The notes under the pieces: generated by a model | What the model was told of the DNA's origin: nothing | Seen by the model: the letters and a program-made list of their open reading frames with translations, nothing else | Database searches by the model: none | Translations under genes and position numbers: made by a program | Shown: positions 34,641 to 42,032 of the stretch, one piece after another | Layout: each line of letters starts with the position of its first letter | Numbering within the stretch: position 1 is the first letter of the stretch | Assembly (NCBI GenBank): GCA_965227295.1 | Contig: OZ245742.1 | Span: 4,160,001-4,224,000, forward strand | Reading direction: 5' to 3' | DNA: 64,000 nt | DNA from: Leptonemataceae bacterium | GTDB taxonomy: Bacteria > Spirochaetota > Leptospiria > Leptospirales > Leptonemataceae

Positions 34641-35246
34641 TTACTTCGGCGACTTGCGGTGAATGACCTCGGGGCCGATCTCATCGTATTCGTCCGGCGT
34701 GATCATCGTTTCGGCGAACGTGGAATCGGCCGCCATGCCGGACGTCATGGACCAACTCGTAAAGTGCGGGCTCATGAAGAATCCGGCGACACCGAAGGTT
34801 TCGAAGAACAACTGCGTGGTTGCTTCGCGGGCTTCGTCCGTACTATTCGCGGCCTCGTTTAGAACCACGGCGACCTCGTCCGGTTCTACCTGAAGTTTGC
34901 TCGATAGAATGTGTTGCACGAGCGCTTCGAAGGCGTTCCGGTCGCTGATCGTATTACCACCGGGTTCCAGGGCGTAAGTAATTTTTAATGTAGCTTTGCG
35001 TTCGAGGGCTTCGTTGCCGTAATAGGTTTTTGTACCGCCCATGCCGATCATCGGTCCCGGACTCGCGCTTGTGCCGATCACGGCCGGCATGCTGAACCGC
35101 GGCGCGGATTCGCCGGCCAGACCGGCTTCGATGTTGCCGTCTTTGAGATGCAGGACGACCGTTTGTTCGGGACCGCCGGCGGACAGAGGCAGCGCGAAAA
35201 CGGCGAGCACAATGCAGAGTAGTAATCGATACGACAGGTAATTCAT
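34641..35246 (-). CDS. Secreted truncated eukaryotic-actin-like protein (subdomains 1+2 only)
   Basis: Signal peptide, then AGLAGESAPR, MIGMG, GNEA, REATTQLFFETF, STF...ITPDEYDEIGPEVIHRK, matching actin N- and C-terminal segments. Confidence 0.85.
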   Translation of the reverse strand: MNYLSYRLLLCIVLAVFALPLSAGGPEQTVVLHLKDGNIEAGLAGESAPRFSMPAVIGTSASPGPMIGMGGTKTYYGNEALERKATLKITYALEPGGNTISDRNAFEALVQHILSSKLQVEPDEVAVVLNEAANSTDEAREATTQLFFETFGVAGFFMSPHFTSWSMTSGMAADSTFAETMITPDEYDEIGPEVIHRKSPK

Positions 35247-37046: not shown

Positions 37047-38813
37047 TCACAACGCCGACTCCACCGCCCGAATTCCCTGCTTCGCTTCGCCTTCCGCGTC
37101 ATGCAACGCATCTTTTAGAAGATCGTCCAGCGTGGCTTCAATGACGCCGAACAACGGCGCGTGCGGATTGTAACCGACTTCGTCCCAGACTTTGCAGAGT
37201 TTCGCGAAGGGATCCGCCTGCATGACGATGCTGTCGTTCGAAAAAACCATCACGTCTTTGCCGGCGTCGTAATGATTCCAGGCGGCGGCATCGGCGACGG
37301 GCCGGCCGGATTTCGCAAAGCTCGTCCAGTAGCCGCCCATGATGTCCGACATGCGATTCTCGGAAACGTTAAAGCCGCCGTCGACGGCGCCCGTGCTGTC
37401 GTCGGAGTTATGAAAGACGTACGGCAACTCCGAGCCGTGGCAGACCGCGTCCGCGCACTGCGGATACTGCGGCCAGGGATTGAACGCGGAGATGTAGTCG
37501 AACGTGTAGACAAAGTTACGCGCAGCCTGCCCCACTGCCGCTGAACGGTTGCCGCACTTAAACAGATAGTCCGTGGCGAGCCGCGCGAGGGTCGCGCTGT
37601 TGTCGCCTTTCACCGGCGGATACTGCTGCACAATGAGTTTGCGTTCGTTTTGATCGAAGAAAAGATTCAACACGAACTGATACTCGGCCTGCGTGATCGC
37701 TCCGATGACCTTCGTCGCCATGGCGATGAACAACACCGCCTCGTTCGCGTTCGAGCCCATCAACATGGGCACACGGAACTGAGCCTTGGAGATCGGCGGC
37801 GGGTTGTCCGTGATTACCCTGTGGTCGATGACCGGAGCCCAGATGACCGGCCCGGCAATGCCTTCGGTCAGCACCGGCAGGAGACCCACGAAATTCGTCT
37901 CGCCGCTAACAATTTCTTTTGTGGACTTAGAACGCAGGCACTCCGCGCGTGCGGCTCCCGGAATCGGACAGAGGTTCACCAGGCTGAAGGCCCGGCCGAG
38001 TTTATCGGCCTGCTGCGCATCTTTGTAGGCCAGCGCGATGGGATTGCTTTCCATGATTGCGAAACGAAACAGGCCCGCGCTACCCGGCGCGGTCGAGGCA
38101 TGCAACCCCACCGACATGGCCCCGGCGCTCTGGCCGAAGATGGTAACCTTGTCCGGACTGCCGCCGAAGGCACCGATGTTCCGTTGCACCCAGCGAAGCG
38201 CCAGTTGTTGATCCAGGAAACCGTAATTCCCCAATAGGCCGGCGTCCTTCACAAAGAGAAAACCCGAAGCACCGAGGCGATAATTCAGGTTCACGATGAT
38301 GATGTCGTGATGCGAGGCGAGGTAGGCGCCGTCGTACAGGGTCGTCTGCGCCGAGCCGGCCATGAAAAATCCGCCGTAAATGAAAACCATCACCGGCGTA
38401 TGCGGCTGCACATGCTCCGGCGTCCACACGTTGACGATGAGACAATCCTCGTCCATGGTCTTCGGATCGTAAGGTGCCTGCGGACAAATTTTACCCGGTC
38501 CCGTCGCATCGAAGACGCCTTCCCAGACGGCCTTCGGTTCCGGCGGCGCGAACCGCACCGGCTTTTCGGCGAAGGGAATGCCCGTGTACGCGTAGGCCTT
38601 GCGATCGCCGGAGTCCACGAGTTGCCCCTGGATCTTTCCGGCCGGCGCGGGAATGATGCCCTGATGCGCCGTCGTCTTCAGCGTCGGCAGATCGGCAACG
38701 GGAGCGGCGGCGTCATGCCCGGCAGGTTTGCACGCGAGAAGCAGCACGCTGCTCGTAAGCAGAGTGGAGGCTAACAGTAGCGTAACATTCGTTCGGAATG
38801 CTTTAATTTGCAT
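37047..38813 (-). CDS. Type-B carboxylesterase/lipase lipoprotein
   Basis: LLAC lipobox, EDCL, YGGFF, NYRLG, FGQSAG catalytic Ser, HGSEL. Confidence 0.92.
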   Translation of the reverse strand: MQIKAFRTNVTLLLASTLLTSSVLLLACKPAGHDAAAPVADLPTLKTTAHQGIIPAPAGKIQGQLVDSGDRKAYAYTGIPFAEKPVRFAPPEPKAVWEGVFDATGPGKICPQAPYDPKTMDEDCLIVNVWTPEHVQPHTPVMVFIYGGFFMAGSAQTTLYDGAYLASHHDIIIVNLNYRLGASGFLFVKDAGLLGNYGFLDQQLALRWVQRNIGAFGGSPDKVTIFGQSAGAMSVGLHASTAPGSAGLFRFAIMESNPIALAYKDAQQADKLGRAFSLVNLCPIPGAARAECLRSKSTKEIVSGETNFVGLLPVLTEGIAGPVIWAPVIDHRVITDNPPPISKAQFRVPMLMGSNANEAVLFIAMATKVIGAITQAEYQFVLNLFFDQNERKLIVQQYPPVKGDNSATLARLATDYLFKCGNRSAAVGQAARNFVYTFDYISAFNPWPQYPQCADAVCHGSELPYVFHNSDDSTGAVDGGFNVSENRMSDIMGGYWTSFAKSGRPVADAAAWNHYDAGKDVMVFSNDSIVMQADPFAKLCKVWDEVGYNPHAPLFGVIEATLDDLLKDALHDAEGEAKQGIRAVESAL

Positions 38814-38864
38814 AGGGCTCTTAACTTACGGAAAGCCGGGGTGAACGCAAGCGGAATTCTTCGA

Positions 38865-40266
38865 AATCAAGAGCCGCGAATCCGAACCCGCTCCGCCCCA
38901 CGGATTGAGCGGGGCTCCGGGTGCGGATTCGCTTGCTGGATCTTTACGATGAAGACGCCGTTCCGGTCCGCCGAACCACGATCCCCGGCACAACCTCCGC
39001 ACGTCAGCTGGAACCGGCTGTACCCATAATAGTGTTAATCCAAACTGGCCTTAACTTACACCACGATTCGGGCCTAAGCGAACGAATAAAACGCTTCCGG
39101 TAGTTCAAGAGCTGTGCCCCGCGGCGGTTGCCGTGAAAATACGATATAAGTTGCGCAATGTTGAAGGGGTTCTTTTTGCTACGGCTTAGCGGGAGTTGTG
39201 GAGTTTCGTTTTGCAAAGCACGCTGCGTTCGACCCGGACGTCGCTTTGCAAGTCAACTACCGGACGTTTCTTGCGGCGAAGACGCCGTTCCGGTGCGCCT
39301 TACCAAATTCCCCGGCATGACCTCCGTTCATCTGCTGGAACCAGCCGTACCCAAAAAGTACACTGGCCGCCACTTACACTACGATTCGGGGCGTCCGCGA
39401 ACAACCCGCGCGTTTCCGGTAGTTCAAGAGCCGCGGTTCGTTGCGATTGCCGTGAGGAACATGAAGTAAGTTGTGCAACGGTGAAGGGGTTGTTATGGCT
39501 ACGGCGAAGCGGGAGTTGTGGTATGTCGTTTTGTTAAGACAGTCCGCATCGACCCGGACGTCGGTTGTGCGACTTCTCTATCGTATCGTTTCTTACGGCG
39601 AAGACGCCGTTCCGGTCCGCCTCACCATGCTCCCCGGCATGACCTCCGCCCGTCAGCTGGAACCAGCTGTACCCATAAAAGGCTTAATGTACACTGGCCG
39701 CTACTTACACTACGATTCTGGGCGTGCGTGAGCTACCCGAACGTTTCCGGTAGTTCAAGAGCCGCGGTTCGTTGCGATCGCCGTGAGAAACATGACGTAA
39801 GTTGCGCAACGGTGAAGGGGTTGTTATGGCTACGGCGAAGCGGGAGTTGTGGTATGTCGTTTTGTTAAGACAGTCCGCATCGACCCGGACGTCGGTTGTG
39901 CGACTTCTCTATCGTATCGTTTCTTACGGCGAAGACGCCGTTCCGGTCCGCCTCACCATGCTCCCCGGCATGACCTCCGCCCGTCAGCTGGAACCAGCTG
40001 TACCCATAAAAGGCTTAATGTACACTGGCCGCTACTTACCTCACGATTCAGGGCGTGTGCGAATAATCAAAACATTTCCGGCATTCAAGAGCCGCGGTTT
40101 ATGCACGCCGCCGTGAACATCAAAGCGTAAGTCGTGTAATAGTAGCGGTATCTTTTGGTTACGGCTCTTCGGAGTTGTGGAAATTCGTTTTGCAAAGAAC
40201 GTTCACTTCGACCCGGACGTCGACTTACGACTCTGCTACCGAAGCGTCTCTGACGGCGAAGACCGC
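38865..40266 (+). repeat. Tandem array of ~322-331-bp non-coding units (4 full plus flanking partial copies); candidate structured ncRNA array
   Basis: Anchor GAAGACGCCGTTCCGGT at 38951, 39278, 39600, 39931, degenerate at 40258; nested inverted repeats with G-U pairs on + strand. Confidence 0.9.
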
Positions 40267-40307
40267 ATCAGCTTACACTGACCTTCATTTACTCTACAAT
40301 CCCAACC

Positions 40308-42032
40308 CTACCCCAACAACCCAATCTTCTCCCGTGCATCCTTAAACGTCGGATCAACTTCCAGCACGCGATGGTACTGCCTTAACGCCTCATCGAACCG
40401 GGACGCGCGTTCGTAAATCAAGCCCAGGTTAAATAGCAACGTCGGCGAATCCGGAAACAAACGCAACAGCCGACCGTAGATCGCCTCGGCCCGATCGAAA
40501 CGTTCTTCGCGTATCATCAATTCACTGCGCGCATGCAACAAAGCGGGGTGCGCGCCGCCGGCGTTACGTAAGAAGCGGCCCGCCGCGTCGAACTCGTGTT
40601 GATCGAACAATTGCAAACCGAAGAACGCGCGCGCGGCCAGGCAGCGCCCGGCCATGGCTTCGAACTGCGGACGCACCGCCCCGCTCAGGCGGTCGGCGTA
40701 CTGCTCGAACGTACGCAACAAAGTCTTAAAATAAAAGGCCGCCCGTTCGTAATCGCGCGGGCCGTCCCCGCGTAAATTGGAGACGATCTCCTTAAAAATC
40801 CGAAAACGTTCCTGCATGAGACGCGGGTCGTGGCCGCCGCCGCTGATCTTCGCCGCGGCTTCCAGAAAGTAATGGTTCTCCACAAGATCGCCGCGCTCTT
40901 CGTGATCGGGACCGAGCACCGGCGGATGACCGTTGCGCGCCACTTCCAACGCCGTGCGAAAACGATAGCGCAACTCTTCCGGCGGCAACAAGAGATCCTG
41001 CTTATCCGCCATGGCCTTTTGCAACAAACGCTCTTCGCGTTCGTGGGCGCCCAGGCGATGAATGCAGTACACCGTTTCGAAGTACGCCGAACGCCCCGGC
41101 CACACCGAAAACTCCTGGAGTCGCCGCAGATAGTGCACGTACTTACCGTTGATCAAATAAGCGTTCAACACTAATCGCGACAGATAAGCTTTTTCCCCCA
41201 TGAACTTAGCGTGTCGCAACAGCAGACGGTTCGCCCGGAACAGCTTGCCGCGCATCTGGAGGTTCGCGTAGAGGTCCAGCAGATCGTCCTCGTCCACCGG
41301 CGGATTCTTCGCCATGCGGCGAATCACGTAGGCTTCCGTCTCCGTGTCGCCGGTGTAGGCCGCTTCGAGCCAGAGCAAACGCTTTACCGAAGGTCCGCCG
41401 TCGTGGCCGGCCGCGGCCCCGCCGCCCGGCACGGCCTCCGGATCGTCGTGAGCCCCCGGGCGTTTGCGCCCGCGCAAAATTTCATAACAATAATCAAAAT
41501 ACGGATCGTCGTGGCCCACCGAACGCGCGTAAAAATCCGCGGCCAGCGGGCGCTCCGGATGTTCGCAGGCCGAAAGCAGCGCCGCCGTCCGGTACACCGC
41601 GTCCCATTCGCAACCGTGCGCACGCAGGTGTTCGGCCAGGCTGAAGACCCACTGCGACCTCCCGGTCCAGATGGCGAAATGAATCAACGCGACGATGATG
41701 CGCCGGTCGATCTCGTGCCGGCCGTCGGTGGGATCTTCGAACGGCTTGCGCAAGTAGCAACGATATAGCTCGGGCATGAGCTCGCGCGCGCGGCGCCGGG
41801 CCTGGGGATGTAAGATGAACCGCGCCTTCCAGAACACGAAGGCGAAGCGATCCGGCAACGGCCGACCGGAGACGCCCGGGCGGAAGATGCGCTCCATGAG
41901 GATGTCACGATGCGTCAGATTTTCCAGTTGATCGTGGAACAGCGCCCGATAGTAATCATAGGTCTTTGCGTACCGCGCTGCGTCCGGATTCAGACGCAGG
42001 TGGTGACGGGGTTGGGTATTCGCAGAAGCCAT
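40308..42032 (-). CDS. Tetratricopeptide repeat protein
   Basis: C-terminal TPRs (FPDSPTLLFNLGLIY...ALRQYHRVLEVDP). Confidence 0.75.
   Translation of the reverse strand: MASANTQPRHHLRLNPDAARYAKTYDYYRALFHDQLENLTHRDILMERIFRPGVSGRPLPDRFAFVFWKARFILHPQARRRARELMPELYRCYLRKPFEDPTDGRHEIDRRIIVALIHFAIWTGRSQWVFSLAEHLRAHGCEWDAVYRTAALLSACEHPERPLAADFYARSVGHDDPYFDYCYEILRGRKRPGAHDDPEAVPGGGAAAGHDGGPSVKRLLWLEAAYTGDTETEAYVIRRMAKNPPVDEDDLLDLYANLQMRGKLFRANRLLLRHAKFMGEKAYLSRLVLNAYLINGKYVHYLRRLQEFSVWPGRSAYFETVYCIHRLGAHEREERLLQKAMADKQDLLLPPEELRYRFRTALEVARNGHPPVLGPDHEERGDLVENHYFLEAAAKISGGGHDPRLMQERFRIFKEIVSNLRGDGPRDYERAAFYFKTLLRTFEQYADRLSGAVRPQFEAMAGRCLAARAFFGLQLFDQHEFDAAGRFLRNAGGAHPALLHARSELMIREERFDRAEAIYGRLLRLFPDSPTLLFNLGLIYERASRFDEALRQYHRVLEVDPTFKDAREKIGLLG

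Follow-up and report, generated by a model that had tools for sequence, protein, structure and literature searches.

Most interspersed repeats of bacteria are shorter than 200 bp. In the BOX elements of streptococci the boxB module is about 45 nt, and over a hundred BOX copies can be found per genome. At first the LDR and QUAD/sib-ibs repeats of E. coli were recognized only as repeated sequences between genes, and Kawano et al. 2002 (listed among the references of PMC4147584) reportedly found that the E. coli long direct repeats encode a 35-aa toxin and an antisense RNA. The large RNAs OLE, GOLLD, ROOL, HEARO, and raiA were defined by covariation over many taxa, and none of them is known to form tandem arrays at several loci. 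In BOX elements, boxA and boxC flank a variable tandem array of boxB; folding of the transcribed elements is predicted, and they give rise to annotated ORFs (PMC3049150). NsiR1 of Nostoc sp. PCC 7120 comprises RNAs of about 60 nt made from 12 tandem copies with individual promoters (PMC9045159).

We analyzed a tandem array in a window of 64 kb (the whole stretch of DNA under study) in which a head, four units, and a tail take up all of the space separating a TPR gene from a carboxylesterase gene and leave the esterase promoter no place outside the array; the tail runs up to the TPR stop codon. With a probability of roughly 50%, we read the locus as a lineage-restricted, non-coding composite interspersed repeat consisting of a hairpin head, ~330-bp modules repeated in varying number, and a short tail. 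The tandem array first reported in the initial annotation was confirmed: four full units of ~330 nt occupy 38951-40257, and the 17-mer GAAGACGCCGTTCCGGT starts at 38951, 39278, 39600, and 39931 (four exact matches versus 0.47 expected), with a decayed fifth copy beginning at 40258. All of the anchors claimed previously were thus recovered, as were the periods of 327, 322, 331, and 327, which follow from the start positions of the 17-mer. Tandem Repeats Finder returned a single array, 38944-40099, with a period of 331, 3.5 copies, 83% matches, and a score of 1504. The extent originally proposed, 38865-40266, covered a real array and was too short; with head and tail it runs from 38814 to 40310 and comprises the following parts:

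38814..38950, + strand: array head (leader), an incomplete and diverged unit with a strong hairpin.
38951..39277, + strand: unit 1, 327 nt (nhmmer E 9e-105).
39278..39599, + strand: unit 2, 322 nt, with a 9-nt deletion at alignment columns 81-89.
39600..39930, + strand: unit 3, 331 nt, a hybrid unit.
39931..40257, + strand: unit 4, 327 nt, with a CTTCGG loop at 40167-40172.
40258..40310, + strand: array tail, a decayed unit start followed by a piece like unit columns 89-117.

Both the deletion in unit 2 and the CTTCGG in the last unit had been described beforehand and were located as described. No further unit copies were found in the window (next-best nhmmer match E 0.12). The 3′ end of the head is the junction sequence preceding unit 1, and the word TCAAGAGCCGCG, read off the sequence, is common to the head and the units. 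Similarity of the head to unit columns 119-169 is collinear and weak (nhmmer E 9.6), as is that of the tail at 40272-40300 to unit columns 89-117 (nhmmer E 7); neither is significant alone, and this weakness counts against a composite repeat. Three negative results on mobility count in the same direction: among the 25 longest of 39 inverted-repeat pairs, none joins head to tail or forms terminal inverted repeats linking them; no target-site or direct duplication was seen in the sequence at 38814 or 40310; and no recombinase or transposase gene is present among the five genes before and six genes after the array. The genes checked likewise included no cas or RT gene, in agreement with the initial annotation. 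Identity as a MITE was rejected on the missing terminal inverted repeats (25 longest of 39 pairs) and target-site duplication. CRISPR arrays are composed of short (about 23-55 nt) identical repeats and unique spacers, usually with cas genes; here units of 322-331 nt abut without spacers and the neighborhood holds no cas gene, and a CRISPR array was also rejected.

Relatives of the array were sought through the ORFs that read it, so that the number of copies is derived from mis-annotated ORFs and not from DNA. The repeat is also read by 15 distinct ORFs outside the window, all of them on its contig of 5,938,550 bp: 14 came from a profile of a second reading frame, and P0001 came from the search with a first frame, in which it was the sole match among 61 candidates. 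The second-frame profile matched 15 proteins at E ≤ 0.01, all on this contig and including P0009, the window's own ORF. A head module is common to five ORFs (P0001, P0005, P0006, P0007, and P0013), the head read by P0001 being similar to that of the window by tblastn, and at least six array heads were seen, the window's included. Ten ORFs span a unit-to-unit junction, and in P0013 a head is followed by a portion of a single unit and then by a tail-like piece. Judged from these ORF matches, one 5.94-Mb chromosome carries the family in many copies. This multi-locus family with a shared head had not been foreseen in the initial annotation. Its arrays inflate annotation with spurious small "proteins", 16 database entries in all (P0009 and the 15 elsewhere on the contig).

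Via the same ORF proxies, no relatives from any other contig were detected among 5.8 billion protein clusters from genomes and metagenomes; seven matches were returned among 1.84 billion representatives, and six of the seven reappear on the 5,938,550-bp contig. Two units used as blastn queries gave no match in plasmids or phages. Scanning genome contigs with the invariant 17-mer identified at least 96 single-match loci in unrelated phyla, regarded as chance matches, in which an HMM of the unit found nothing beyond the 17-mer itself (best E 0.17). Literature titles and abstract openings contained no description of such a repeat, a weak negative. Because the family is multi-copy, shares a head, and was seen in no other genome, a dispersed composite repeat is at least as likely as a dedicated trans-acting RNA.

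The units within the array recombine. Unit 2 equals unit 3 in columns 208-331 (100%), units 3 and 4 are 99.1% identical in columns 1-110, and all remaining unit-by-unit block comparisons give 63-89% identity, so that unit 3 is a hybrid with its 5′ third as in unit 4 and its 3′ third as in unit 2. The earlier description of the middle copies as nearly identical therefore holds for those two stretches, the rest being a mosaic. Unit 1 is 72-77% identical to the other units. Arrays may grow and shrink through unequal crossing-over or gene conversion.

Conservation along the unit appears strongly block-wise. Divergence from the consensus at informative positions is 12.4% overall, 1% in columns 1-20 and 281-290, and 36% in columns 271-280, and the heterogeneity among blocks is pronounced (chi-square 204 on 32 df), its apparent size being inflated because the paralogs were found through conserved words. 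Several blocks and inverted repeats recur at fixed places (strand is given where assigned):

38876..38932: head hairpin, inverted repeat I6, with 15-nt outer arms that are 93% complementary and an inner helix.
39179..39201 (unit 1), 39499-39521 (unit 2), 39830-39852 (unit 3), and 40159-40180 (unit 4), + strand: hairpin with a U-rich tail, columns 231-253.
39654..39669 (unit 3), 39005-39020 (unit 1), 39332-39347 (unit 2, one internal mismatch), and 39985-40000 (unit 4): CAGCTG-GAAC-CAGCTG hairpin or palindrome pair, columns 55-70.
39880..39894 (unit 3), also at 39229, 39549, and 40208: invariant 15-mer TCGACCCGGACGTCG.

Under the composite-repeat reading, arrays would spread as head-plus-unit blocks in the manner of streptococcal BOX elements, with a module about seven times larger, and the blocks would owe their conservation to local hairpins formed by the + strand transcript. 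The hairpins we propose lie at columns 55-70, at columns 131-157, in a 3′ domain closed by GCCGU/ACGGC, and at columns 231-265, where a hairpin is followed by the U-rich tract. Each module could then be a small structured RNA or a terminator/stabilizer element rather than one ornate 330-nt RNA of fixed tertiary fold. If the repeat acts at all, it probably does so as + strand RNA modules. Several of the hairpins need G-U pairs and therefore form only on the + strand, a preference already claimed in the initial annotation and supported by strand-wise folding energies: stretches of 42-43 nt with the hairpin of columns 231-253, in which 88.9% of cells pair, fold at -9.2 to -10 kcal/mol on the + strand and at -1.2 to -2.9 on the - strand, the + strand z being only -0.65 to -1.26. 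For the head hairpin the - strand gives the more stable fold: the minimum free energy of 38860-38950 is -40.9 kcal/mol on the + strand (z -3.43) and -47.9 on the - strand (z -4.65), values reached by 0 of 200 shuffles on either strand.

The initial annotation had proposed that each ~330-nt unit is an unrecognized structured ncRNA with a covarying nested fold on the + strand, possibly acting in trans. We regard this as doubtful, although several observations speak for it in addition to the block-wise conservation. The four stem arms lie where they had been placed, and RNAalifold on three independent 3′ halves recovered the nested stems; 87-89% of the cells in these stems pair. The 3′ half of unit 2 folds at -61.1 kcal/mol (z -4.73 on the + strand, +0.11 on the - strand) and that of unit 3 has z -5.34 on the + strand and -1.66 on the - strand, an exceptional stability confined to the + strand; in unit 4 the CTTCGG loop closes a 9-bp hairpin. 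The two unusually stable 3′ halves, with z about -5, are nearly identical in sequence. The 3′ halves of units 1 and 4 fold ordinarily (z -0.31 and -0.69), whole-unit folding is no better than that of shuffles (z +0.87, -1.10, and -1.74), and the optimal fold of each unit uses different pairing partners. The RNAalifold consensus for the three independent copies, despite recovering the stems, has an ordinary energy (3′ half, z -0.93 on the + strand and -1.49 on the - strand; 5′ half, +1.05 on the + strand).

Covariation was assessed on the two stems of the initial annotation and one further hairpin, with partner-sliding and shuffle controls, using three independent full copies and degenerate back-translations of the paralog ORFs, a set of low power. 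Across the three stems 88.4% of cells pair, versus 36-46% with partners slid. The claimed covariation was not borne out: 81 of 500 shuffles scored at least as high, and 110 of 500 had at least as many double changes (two). The two stems, with zero and one double change, are ordinary among 427 alternative stems, 58 of which have at least one double change and 16 at least two. In the back-translated paralogs only determinable pairs were counted, and the ambiguity is too great for any helix to be supported or rejected. Pairing is preserved by a few double changes, at 55/70 and 56/69 in two of the paralogs and at columns 134/154 in one; the paralog-extended count for columns 55-70 is 56 cells paired, 4 unpaired, and 53 undetermined, with two double changes. 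Against these, paralogs have changes in the ACGGC arm for which nothing in the invariant GCCGT arm (columns 7-11) visibly compensates. A conserved, covarying fold of the whole unit is accordingly disfavored, with whole units, consensus energy, and covariation all at shuffle level, and no homologue was found in another genome through the ORF proxies.

A screen against Rfam 15, which covers known self-cleaving ribozymes, riboswitches, and large ncRNAs, gave no match at gathering thresholds in the whole 64-kb window, upholding the description of the array as unrecognized, so that an ncRNA here would be new. Relaxing the threshold to E ≤ 10 for 38700-40400 gave a single match, S15-Halobacteria (15.5 bits versus a cut-off of 49, E 7.5), which we regard as noise and which falls on the head hairpin; no tRNA or tmRNA was found. 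The array might still represent a true new ncRNA class. If the conserved blocks serve an RNA, they would define a new class of narrow distribution whose tandem layout over several loci would be without precedent; if they do not, the locus would usefully show how a fold that looks convincing in a few copies of recent duplication can mislead.

A different RNA-based account, which we consider rather unlikely, is that of an undescribed RNA of ~330 nt in head-led arrays at no fewer than six loci of one chromosome, either transcribed as a + strand multimer that is cut to unit length or released as many copies of one riboregulator. The cutting might be performed by a self-cleaving motif absent from Rfam, by analogy with the tandem satellites of eukaryotes that carry ribozymes, and the near-invariant columns 1-20 and 281-295 would be a catalytic or protein-binding core.

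It is unlikely that the array consists of tandem small-RNA genes, each with its own promoter and terminator and each yielding a transcript of ~140 nt that ends at the hairpin and U-tract of columns 231-265. All four units do carry the hairpin followed by the U-rich UCGUUUUG tract, invariant in the paralogs that cover it, and NsiR1 of Nostoc offers a precedent. However, the terminator-like scan flagged two of the four U-tailed hairpins (39179-39201 and 40159-40180), where chance alone predicts 2.9. A weak pair resembling -35 and -10 boxes, TGTACA-17-TACGAT, is discernible by eye at columns 89-117 of the full units, and its stronger version in the array tail, CTTACA-17-TACAAT at 40272-40300 on the + strand, was the only site called in the region (0.8 expected). 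No per-unit promoter reached the threshold of this sigma-70-type scan, which may not match the promoter type of the host, and inspection by eye for sigma-54 and ECF-type motifs found no convincing match. The proposed transcript would leave out the best-conserved blocks (columns 1-20 and 281-295), and the unit is far longer than such an RNA requires. The lack of a per-unit promoter at threshold, the terminator count (2 versus 2.9), the hairpin z of only -0.65 to -1.26, and the greater stability of the head hairpin on the - strand also count against the RNA role in the reading we favor.

The conserved blocks could instead act as DNA, the array being a set of binding sites for a regulator, a nucleoid protein, or a partition protein with the palindromic blocks as putative sites; we judge this very unlikely. 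The invariant blocks are rich in palindromes, with CAGCTG occurring twice 4 nt apart and GACGTC and CCGG lying inside the 15-mer TCGACCCGGACGTCG (four exact matches versus 0.67 expected at up to two mismatches), which is partly complementary to the 17-mer; the palindromic blocks are also the least divergent in the unit. But binding sites leave the one-strand G-U dependence of the hairpins unexplained, no candidate binding protein is encoded nearby, and binding sites spaced 330 bp apart have no known parallel.

Decayed coding repeats or tandem small-protein genes, be they a 109-codon repeat, an Ldr/Ibs-like toxin-antitoxin, or a family of ~100-aa paralogs, are highly improbable. Two units measure 327 nt (3 × 109), two + strand frames are open for 86-116 codons, and + strand ORFs are annotated at many copies; the E. 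coli long direct repeats, too, proved to encode a toxin and an antisense RNA. The repeat units are nevertheless non-coding. The four units differ by seven 1-nt indels, and the variable columns show no 3-nt periodicity (p 0.49), with variation at codon positions 1, 2, and 3 occurring 4, 11, and 12 times in columns 1-119. As the initial annotation had stated, no ORF runs through the entire array. ORFs of different copies differ in frame and stop position, paralog ORFs reading identical conserved DNA blocks in differing frames, and a search with the - strand frame gave eight candidates, none at E ≤ 0.1. Pfam returned no family at E ≤ 0.1 for any of the 10 translations tested, and no hydrophobic ORF of 12-70 aa recurs at one unit position in at least three units. 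A protein-coding tandem repeat was rejected on the indels, the periodicity, and the lack of a Pfam match, and type I toxin-antitoxin repeats (Ldr/Rdl, Ibs/Sib) on the lack of a recurrent small hydrophobic ORF. Least credible is an assembly artefact in which a repeat was collapsed or expanded, for although two stretches of 110-124 nt that are identical or nearly so between neighboring units can mislead short-read assemblers, the units differ overall by 10-28%, each with distinct indels, and related but different copies occur elsewhere on the same 5.94-Mb contig.

Compared with known systems, the array resembles the E. coli LDR (ldr/rdl) and QUAD/sib-ibs repeats in being made of direct repeats a few hundred bases long, which occur at more than one locus and to some extent in tandem, and differs from them, with their small hydrophobic toxin and antisense RNA, in having no conserved small hydrophobic ORF. 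It shares with OLE, GOLLD, ROOL, HEARO, and raiA a size of a few hundred nucleotides, a non-coding nature, and highly conserved blocks, but unlike these families it has no Rfam match at gathering thresholds in the 64 kb. Like NsiR1, it is formed of intergenic head-to-tail direct repeats, each of which could yield one hairpin-ended small RNA, with central copies more alike than outer ones (PMC9045159). NsiR1 has short units at one locus and proven individual promoters, whereas here the units are 330 nt, occupy several loci, and show no promoter at the scan threshold within a full unit. The composite-repeat reading finds its nearest counterpart in BOX. The module here is about 330 nt, no head-to-tail inverted complementarity is found among the 25 longest of 39 pairs, there is no sequence similarity to BOX, and the family, with its six or more array heads, was detected in a single genome. 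Yet this family and the BOX elements of S. pneumoniae and S. suis are both dispersed, non-coding, and intergenic; BOX places an internal tandem module of variable number between distinct end modules, as the family here may do; and both have predicted stem-loops on transcription and large copies annotated as genes (PMC3049150). A family of 330-bp modules with a shared head, block-wise conservation, and one-strand hairpins would be an unusual addition to the interspersed repeats.

The repeat array was delimited with Tandem Repeats Finder, which reported a single array at 38944-40099 (period 331, 3.5 copies, 83% matches, score 1504), and by sequence reading and alignment, which gave four full units (u1-u4) between a head and a tail. 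Positions in the unit alignment are called columns.

37047-38813, - strand: carboxylesterase gene, its start codon adjoining the array
38814-38950: array head, 5' of u1, with weak collinear likeness to a unit (nhmmer E 9.6)
38876-38932: head hairpin, very stable, within the array head
38951-39277: u1, from sequence and alignment
39278-39599: u2, from sequence and alignment
39600-39930: u3, from sequence and alignment
39931-40257: u4, from sequence and alignment
40258-40310: array tail, 3' of u4, a decayed unit start and then a piece like columns 89-117 (nhmmer E 7)
40308-42032, - strand: TPR gene, its stop codon adjoining the array

The anchors and periods of the initial annotation, and the four arms of the two stems that it placed in u3 (39780-39791 with 39919-39930 and 39799-39810 with 39895-39906), were recovered from sequence and alignment, and its positions for CTTCGG (40167-40172) and a 9-nt deletion in u2 were borne out. 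A 17-mer common to all unit starts has four exact matches against 0.47 expected, the others in the 64 kb having three mismatches; an invariant 15-mer occurs once per unit (four exact matches), and an 18-mer is present in three of the four. The array fills the gap from the carboxylesterase start codon to the TPR stop codon with no intergenic DNA to spare, the repeat borders lying at 38813-38814 and 40308-40310. Because the repeat abuts the carboxylesterase start, the esterase ribosome-binding site and promoter must fall in repeat-like sequence, and on the - strand the ribosome-binding site, AAGAG, is 4 nt upstream of the ATG. The head hairpin, 60-120 nt upstream of that start codon, folds at -40.9 kcal/mol on the + strand (z -3.43) and -47.9 on the - strand (z -4.65), with none of 200 shuffles equally stable on either strand, and could be part of the carboxylesterase leader rather than of a + strand element.

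The rest of the window is ordinary chromosome (RecJ, MutY, DapA/B, PdxA, CysS), and among the five genes before the array and the six after it there is, as first reported, no cas, transposase, or RT gene, nor any recombinase gene. The 5' ends of the TPR ORF (- strand, start 42032) and an SLT-domain lytic transglycosylase ORF (+ strand, start 41910) overlap by 123 nt (41910-42032); one of the two start codons was probably called too far upstream. At 34641-35246 on the - strand, a 201-aa ORF resembles eukaryote-type actin without its middle: residues 27-161 correspond to actin 7-139 and residues 161-197 to actin 338-374 (PDB 8trm_A, E 2.5e-26), with a Pfam Actin match at E 8.4e-25 and a weak C-terminal match to NCBIfam "syringactin." Such ORFs are rare in bacteria; this one represents a mini-actin or else what remains of a gene.

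The middle copies had been called nearly identical, which holds for u3 and u2 over columns 208-331 (100% identity) and for u3 and u4 over columns 1-110 (99.1%), whereas every remaining unit-unit block comparison gave 63-89%. u3 is a clean hybrid, its first third that of u4 and its last third that of u2. A single unequal crossover (or a conversion) joining a u2-type to a u4-type unit would produce such a hybrid, and a recent crossover of this sort probably raised the number of units from three to four.

The units are non-coding. Seven 1-nt indels and one of 9 nt separate the four units, the variable columns lack a 3-nt period (33/43/41 by phase, p 0.49), codon positions 1/2/3 vary 4/11/12 times in the best frame of the indel-free columns 1-119, and none of the 10 array translations tested matched a Pfam family at E <= 0.1. 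The long direct repeats of E. coli (LDR) reportedly can conceal toxin/antisense pairs (titles cited in PMC4147584); a type I pair of that kind was rejected here, as no small hydrophobic ORF recurring per unit was found in the array.

Related DNA might have been annotated with ORFs, so we searched for these with the + strand open frames of the array and retrieved database proteins P0001-P0017. The first frame found only P0001 among 61 candidates, a 184-aa protein that by tblastn comprises a window-like head, one shortened unit, and the greater part of a second. With the second frame, 7 of 1.84 billion representatives matched, and its profile found 15 proteins at E <= 0.01 among 8000 candidates scored, all 15 on the same 5,938,550-bp contig. 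P0009, among these 15, is read from the window itself, which places the window on that contig and makes P0001 and the remaining 14 paralogous copies elsewhere on it. The seventh representative, P0008 (238 aa), fell outside the length range of the profile search; it has 44 residues of repeat and then unrelated protein-like sequence, and is apparently a genuine ORF whose start was wrongly placed upstream, inside a partial unit. The other 16 proteins (48-184 aa) are spurious gene calls, each translated from the non-coding repeat in one frame or another. Identical DNA blocks are translated in differing frames with differing stop points, so the repeat is conserved at the nucleotide level. Five ORFs (P0001, P0005, P0006, P0007, and P0013) have the head module in common and ten span a unit-to-unit junction; judged from these proteins, there are at least five further array heads and at least ten further junctions. 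A - strand frame gave 8 candidates, none at E <= 0.1, and no relatives from other genomes or metagenomes were detected through ORFs in the protein collections searched. BLASTN against plasmids and phages gave no match, a 17-mer genome scan gave at least 96 chance matches, and the unit HMM found no real homolog among the matches listed.

The units had been described as covarying, a stronger claim than four copies, of which three are independent, can bear: the covariation score was reached in 81 of 500 shuffles and the number of double changes in 110. Double changes occur in 58 of the 427 stems that pair in three or more of the window's four units, and 16 of these carry two or more. The CAGCTG hairpin (columns 55-70) carries two; a small helix (131-134/154-157) carries one and has no broken cell; the two annotated stems carry none and one. 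Paralog back-translations single out no helix among the 427. In the annotated stems and a hairpin at columns 231-253, 88.4% of cells pair, versus 36-46% with slid partners. RNAalifold recovered the same nested topology from the three independent 3' halves, but at a consensus energy no better than column-shuffled alignments (z -0.93 on the + strand, 8 of 50 shuffles as good; -1.49 on the - strand); for the 5' half, z was +1.05 and +1.16, respectively. The proposed + strand specificity stands for several helices that depend on G-U pairs and for stretches with the 231-253 hairpin (-9.2 to -10 kcal/mol on the + strand, -1.2 to -2.9 on the - strand). The 3' halves of u2 and u3 are exceptionally stable on the + strand (z -4.73 and -5.34; +0.11 and -1.66 on the - strand), which counts as a single observation because they are the same sequence; those of u1 and u4 (z -0.31 and -0.69) and all 5' halves (-0.81 to +1.01 on the + strand) are ordinary.

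Conservation of the module is strongly heterogeneous. Paralog ORFs were placed on the unit columns as degenerate back-translations, and divergence from the consensus at informative positions was 12.4% overall: 1% in columns 1-20 and 281-290, 5-8% in columns 31-50, 61-70, 151-160, and 261-270, and 23-36% in columns 131-140, 171-180, 271-280, and 301-310 (heterogeneity chi-square 204, 32 df, for copies that are not independent and were retrieved via conserved words).

The array belongs to a genuine, unusual repeat family that is not established as a structured RNA: a non-coding module of ~330 bp in internally recombining tandem arrays, with many copies on one chromosome and a common head. We read it as a composite interspersed repeat with + strand RNA-hairpin modules (probability about 0.5). 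The head-units-tail block would have spread as a whole through the chromosome, its length shifting by unequal crossing-over, and conserved blocks would be retained because the + strand transcript folds into local hairpins, including a hairpin and U-rich tract per unit; each module might be a small structured RNA, or a terminator or stabilizer element. Counting against this reading, none of the 25 longest of 39 inverted-repeat pairs links the head to the tail, no target duplication was seen, no mobilizing gene is nearby, no per-unit promoter reached the scan threshold (1 promoter-like site, 0.8 expected), terminator-like sites are at chance (2, 2.9 expected), and the head hairpin is stabler on the - strand.

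A true unit-wide ncRNA is unlikely: a conserved unit fold is plausible, though not demonstrated, whole-unit folding gave z of +0.87, -1.10, and -1.74, and pairing partners in minimum-energy folds differ from unit to unit. Rfam had no match at gathering thresholds in the whole window; at E <= 10 within 38700-40400 it gave one noise match, on the head hairpin (15.5 bits, cut-off 49), and no tRNA or tmRNA was found. A new RNA made from tandem arrays with a head, and perhaps processed into single units, is also unlikely, and NsiR1-like independent sRNA genes, tandem as here but expected to show per-unit promoters, are distinctly so. Protein-binding DNA arrays are very unlikely, and would not explain why several hairpins form on the + strand only. 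Coding remnants, despite the many annotated ORFs, are highly improbable in units free of codon periodicity, and an assembly artifact, for all the identity within u3, is barely credible beside the paralogous copies.

Literature searches listed no title or abstract opening describing a comparable repeat. The closest architecture is that of the BOX elements of streptococci, in which boxA and boxC flank a variable tandem boxB array, folding is predicted upon transcription, and annotated ORFs arise (PMC3049150); the present array differs in module size, lacks end-to-end pairing, and is known from one genome. Closest in possible function is the NsiR1 array of Nostoc, with 12 tandem copies that each have their own promoter (PMC9045159).
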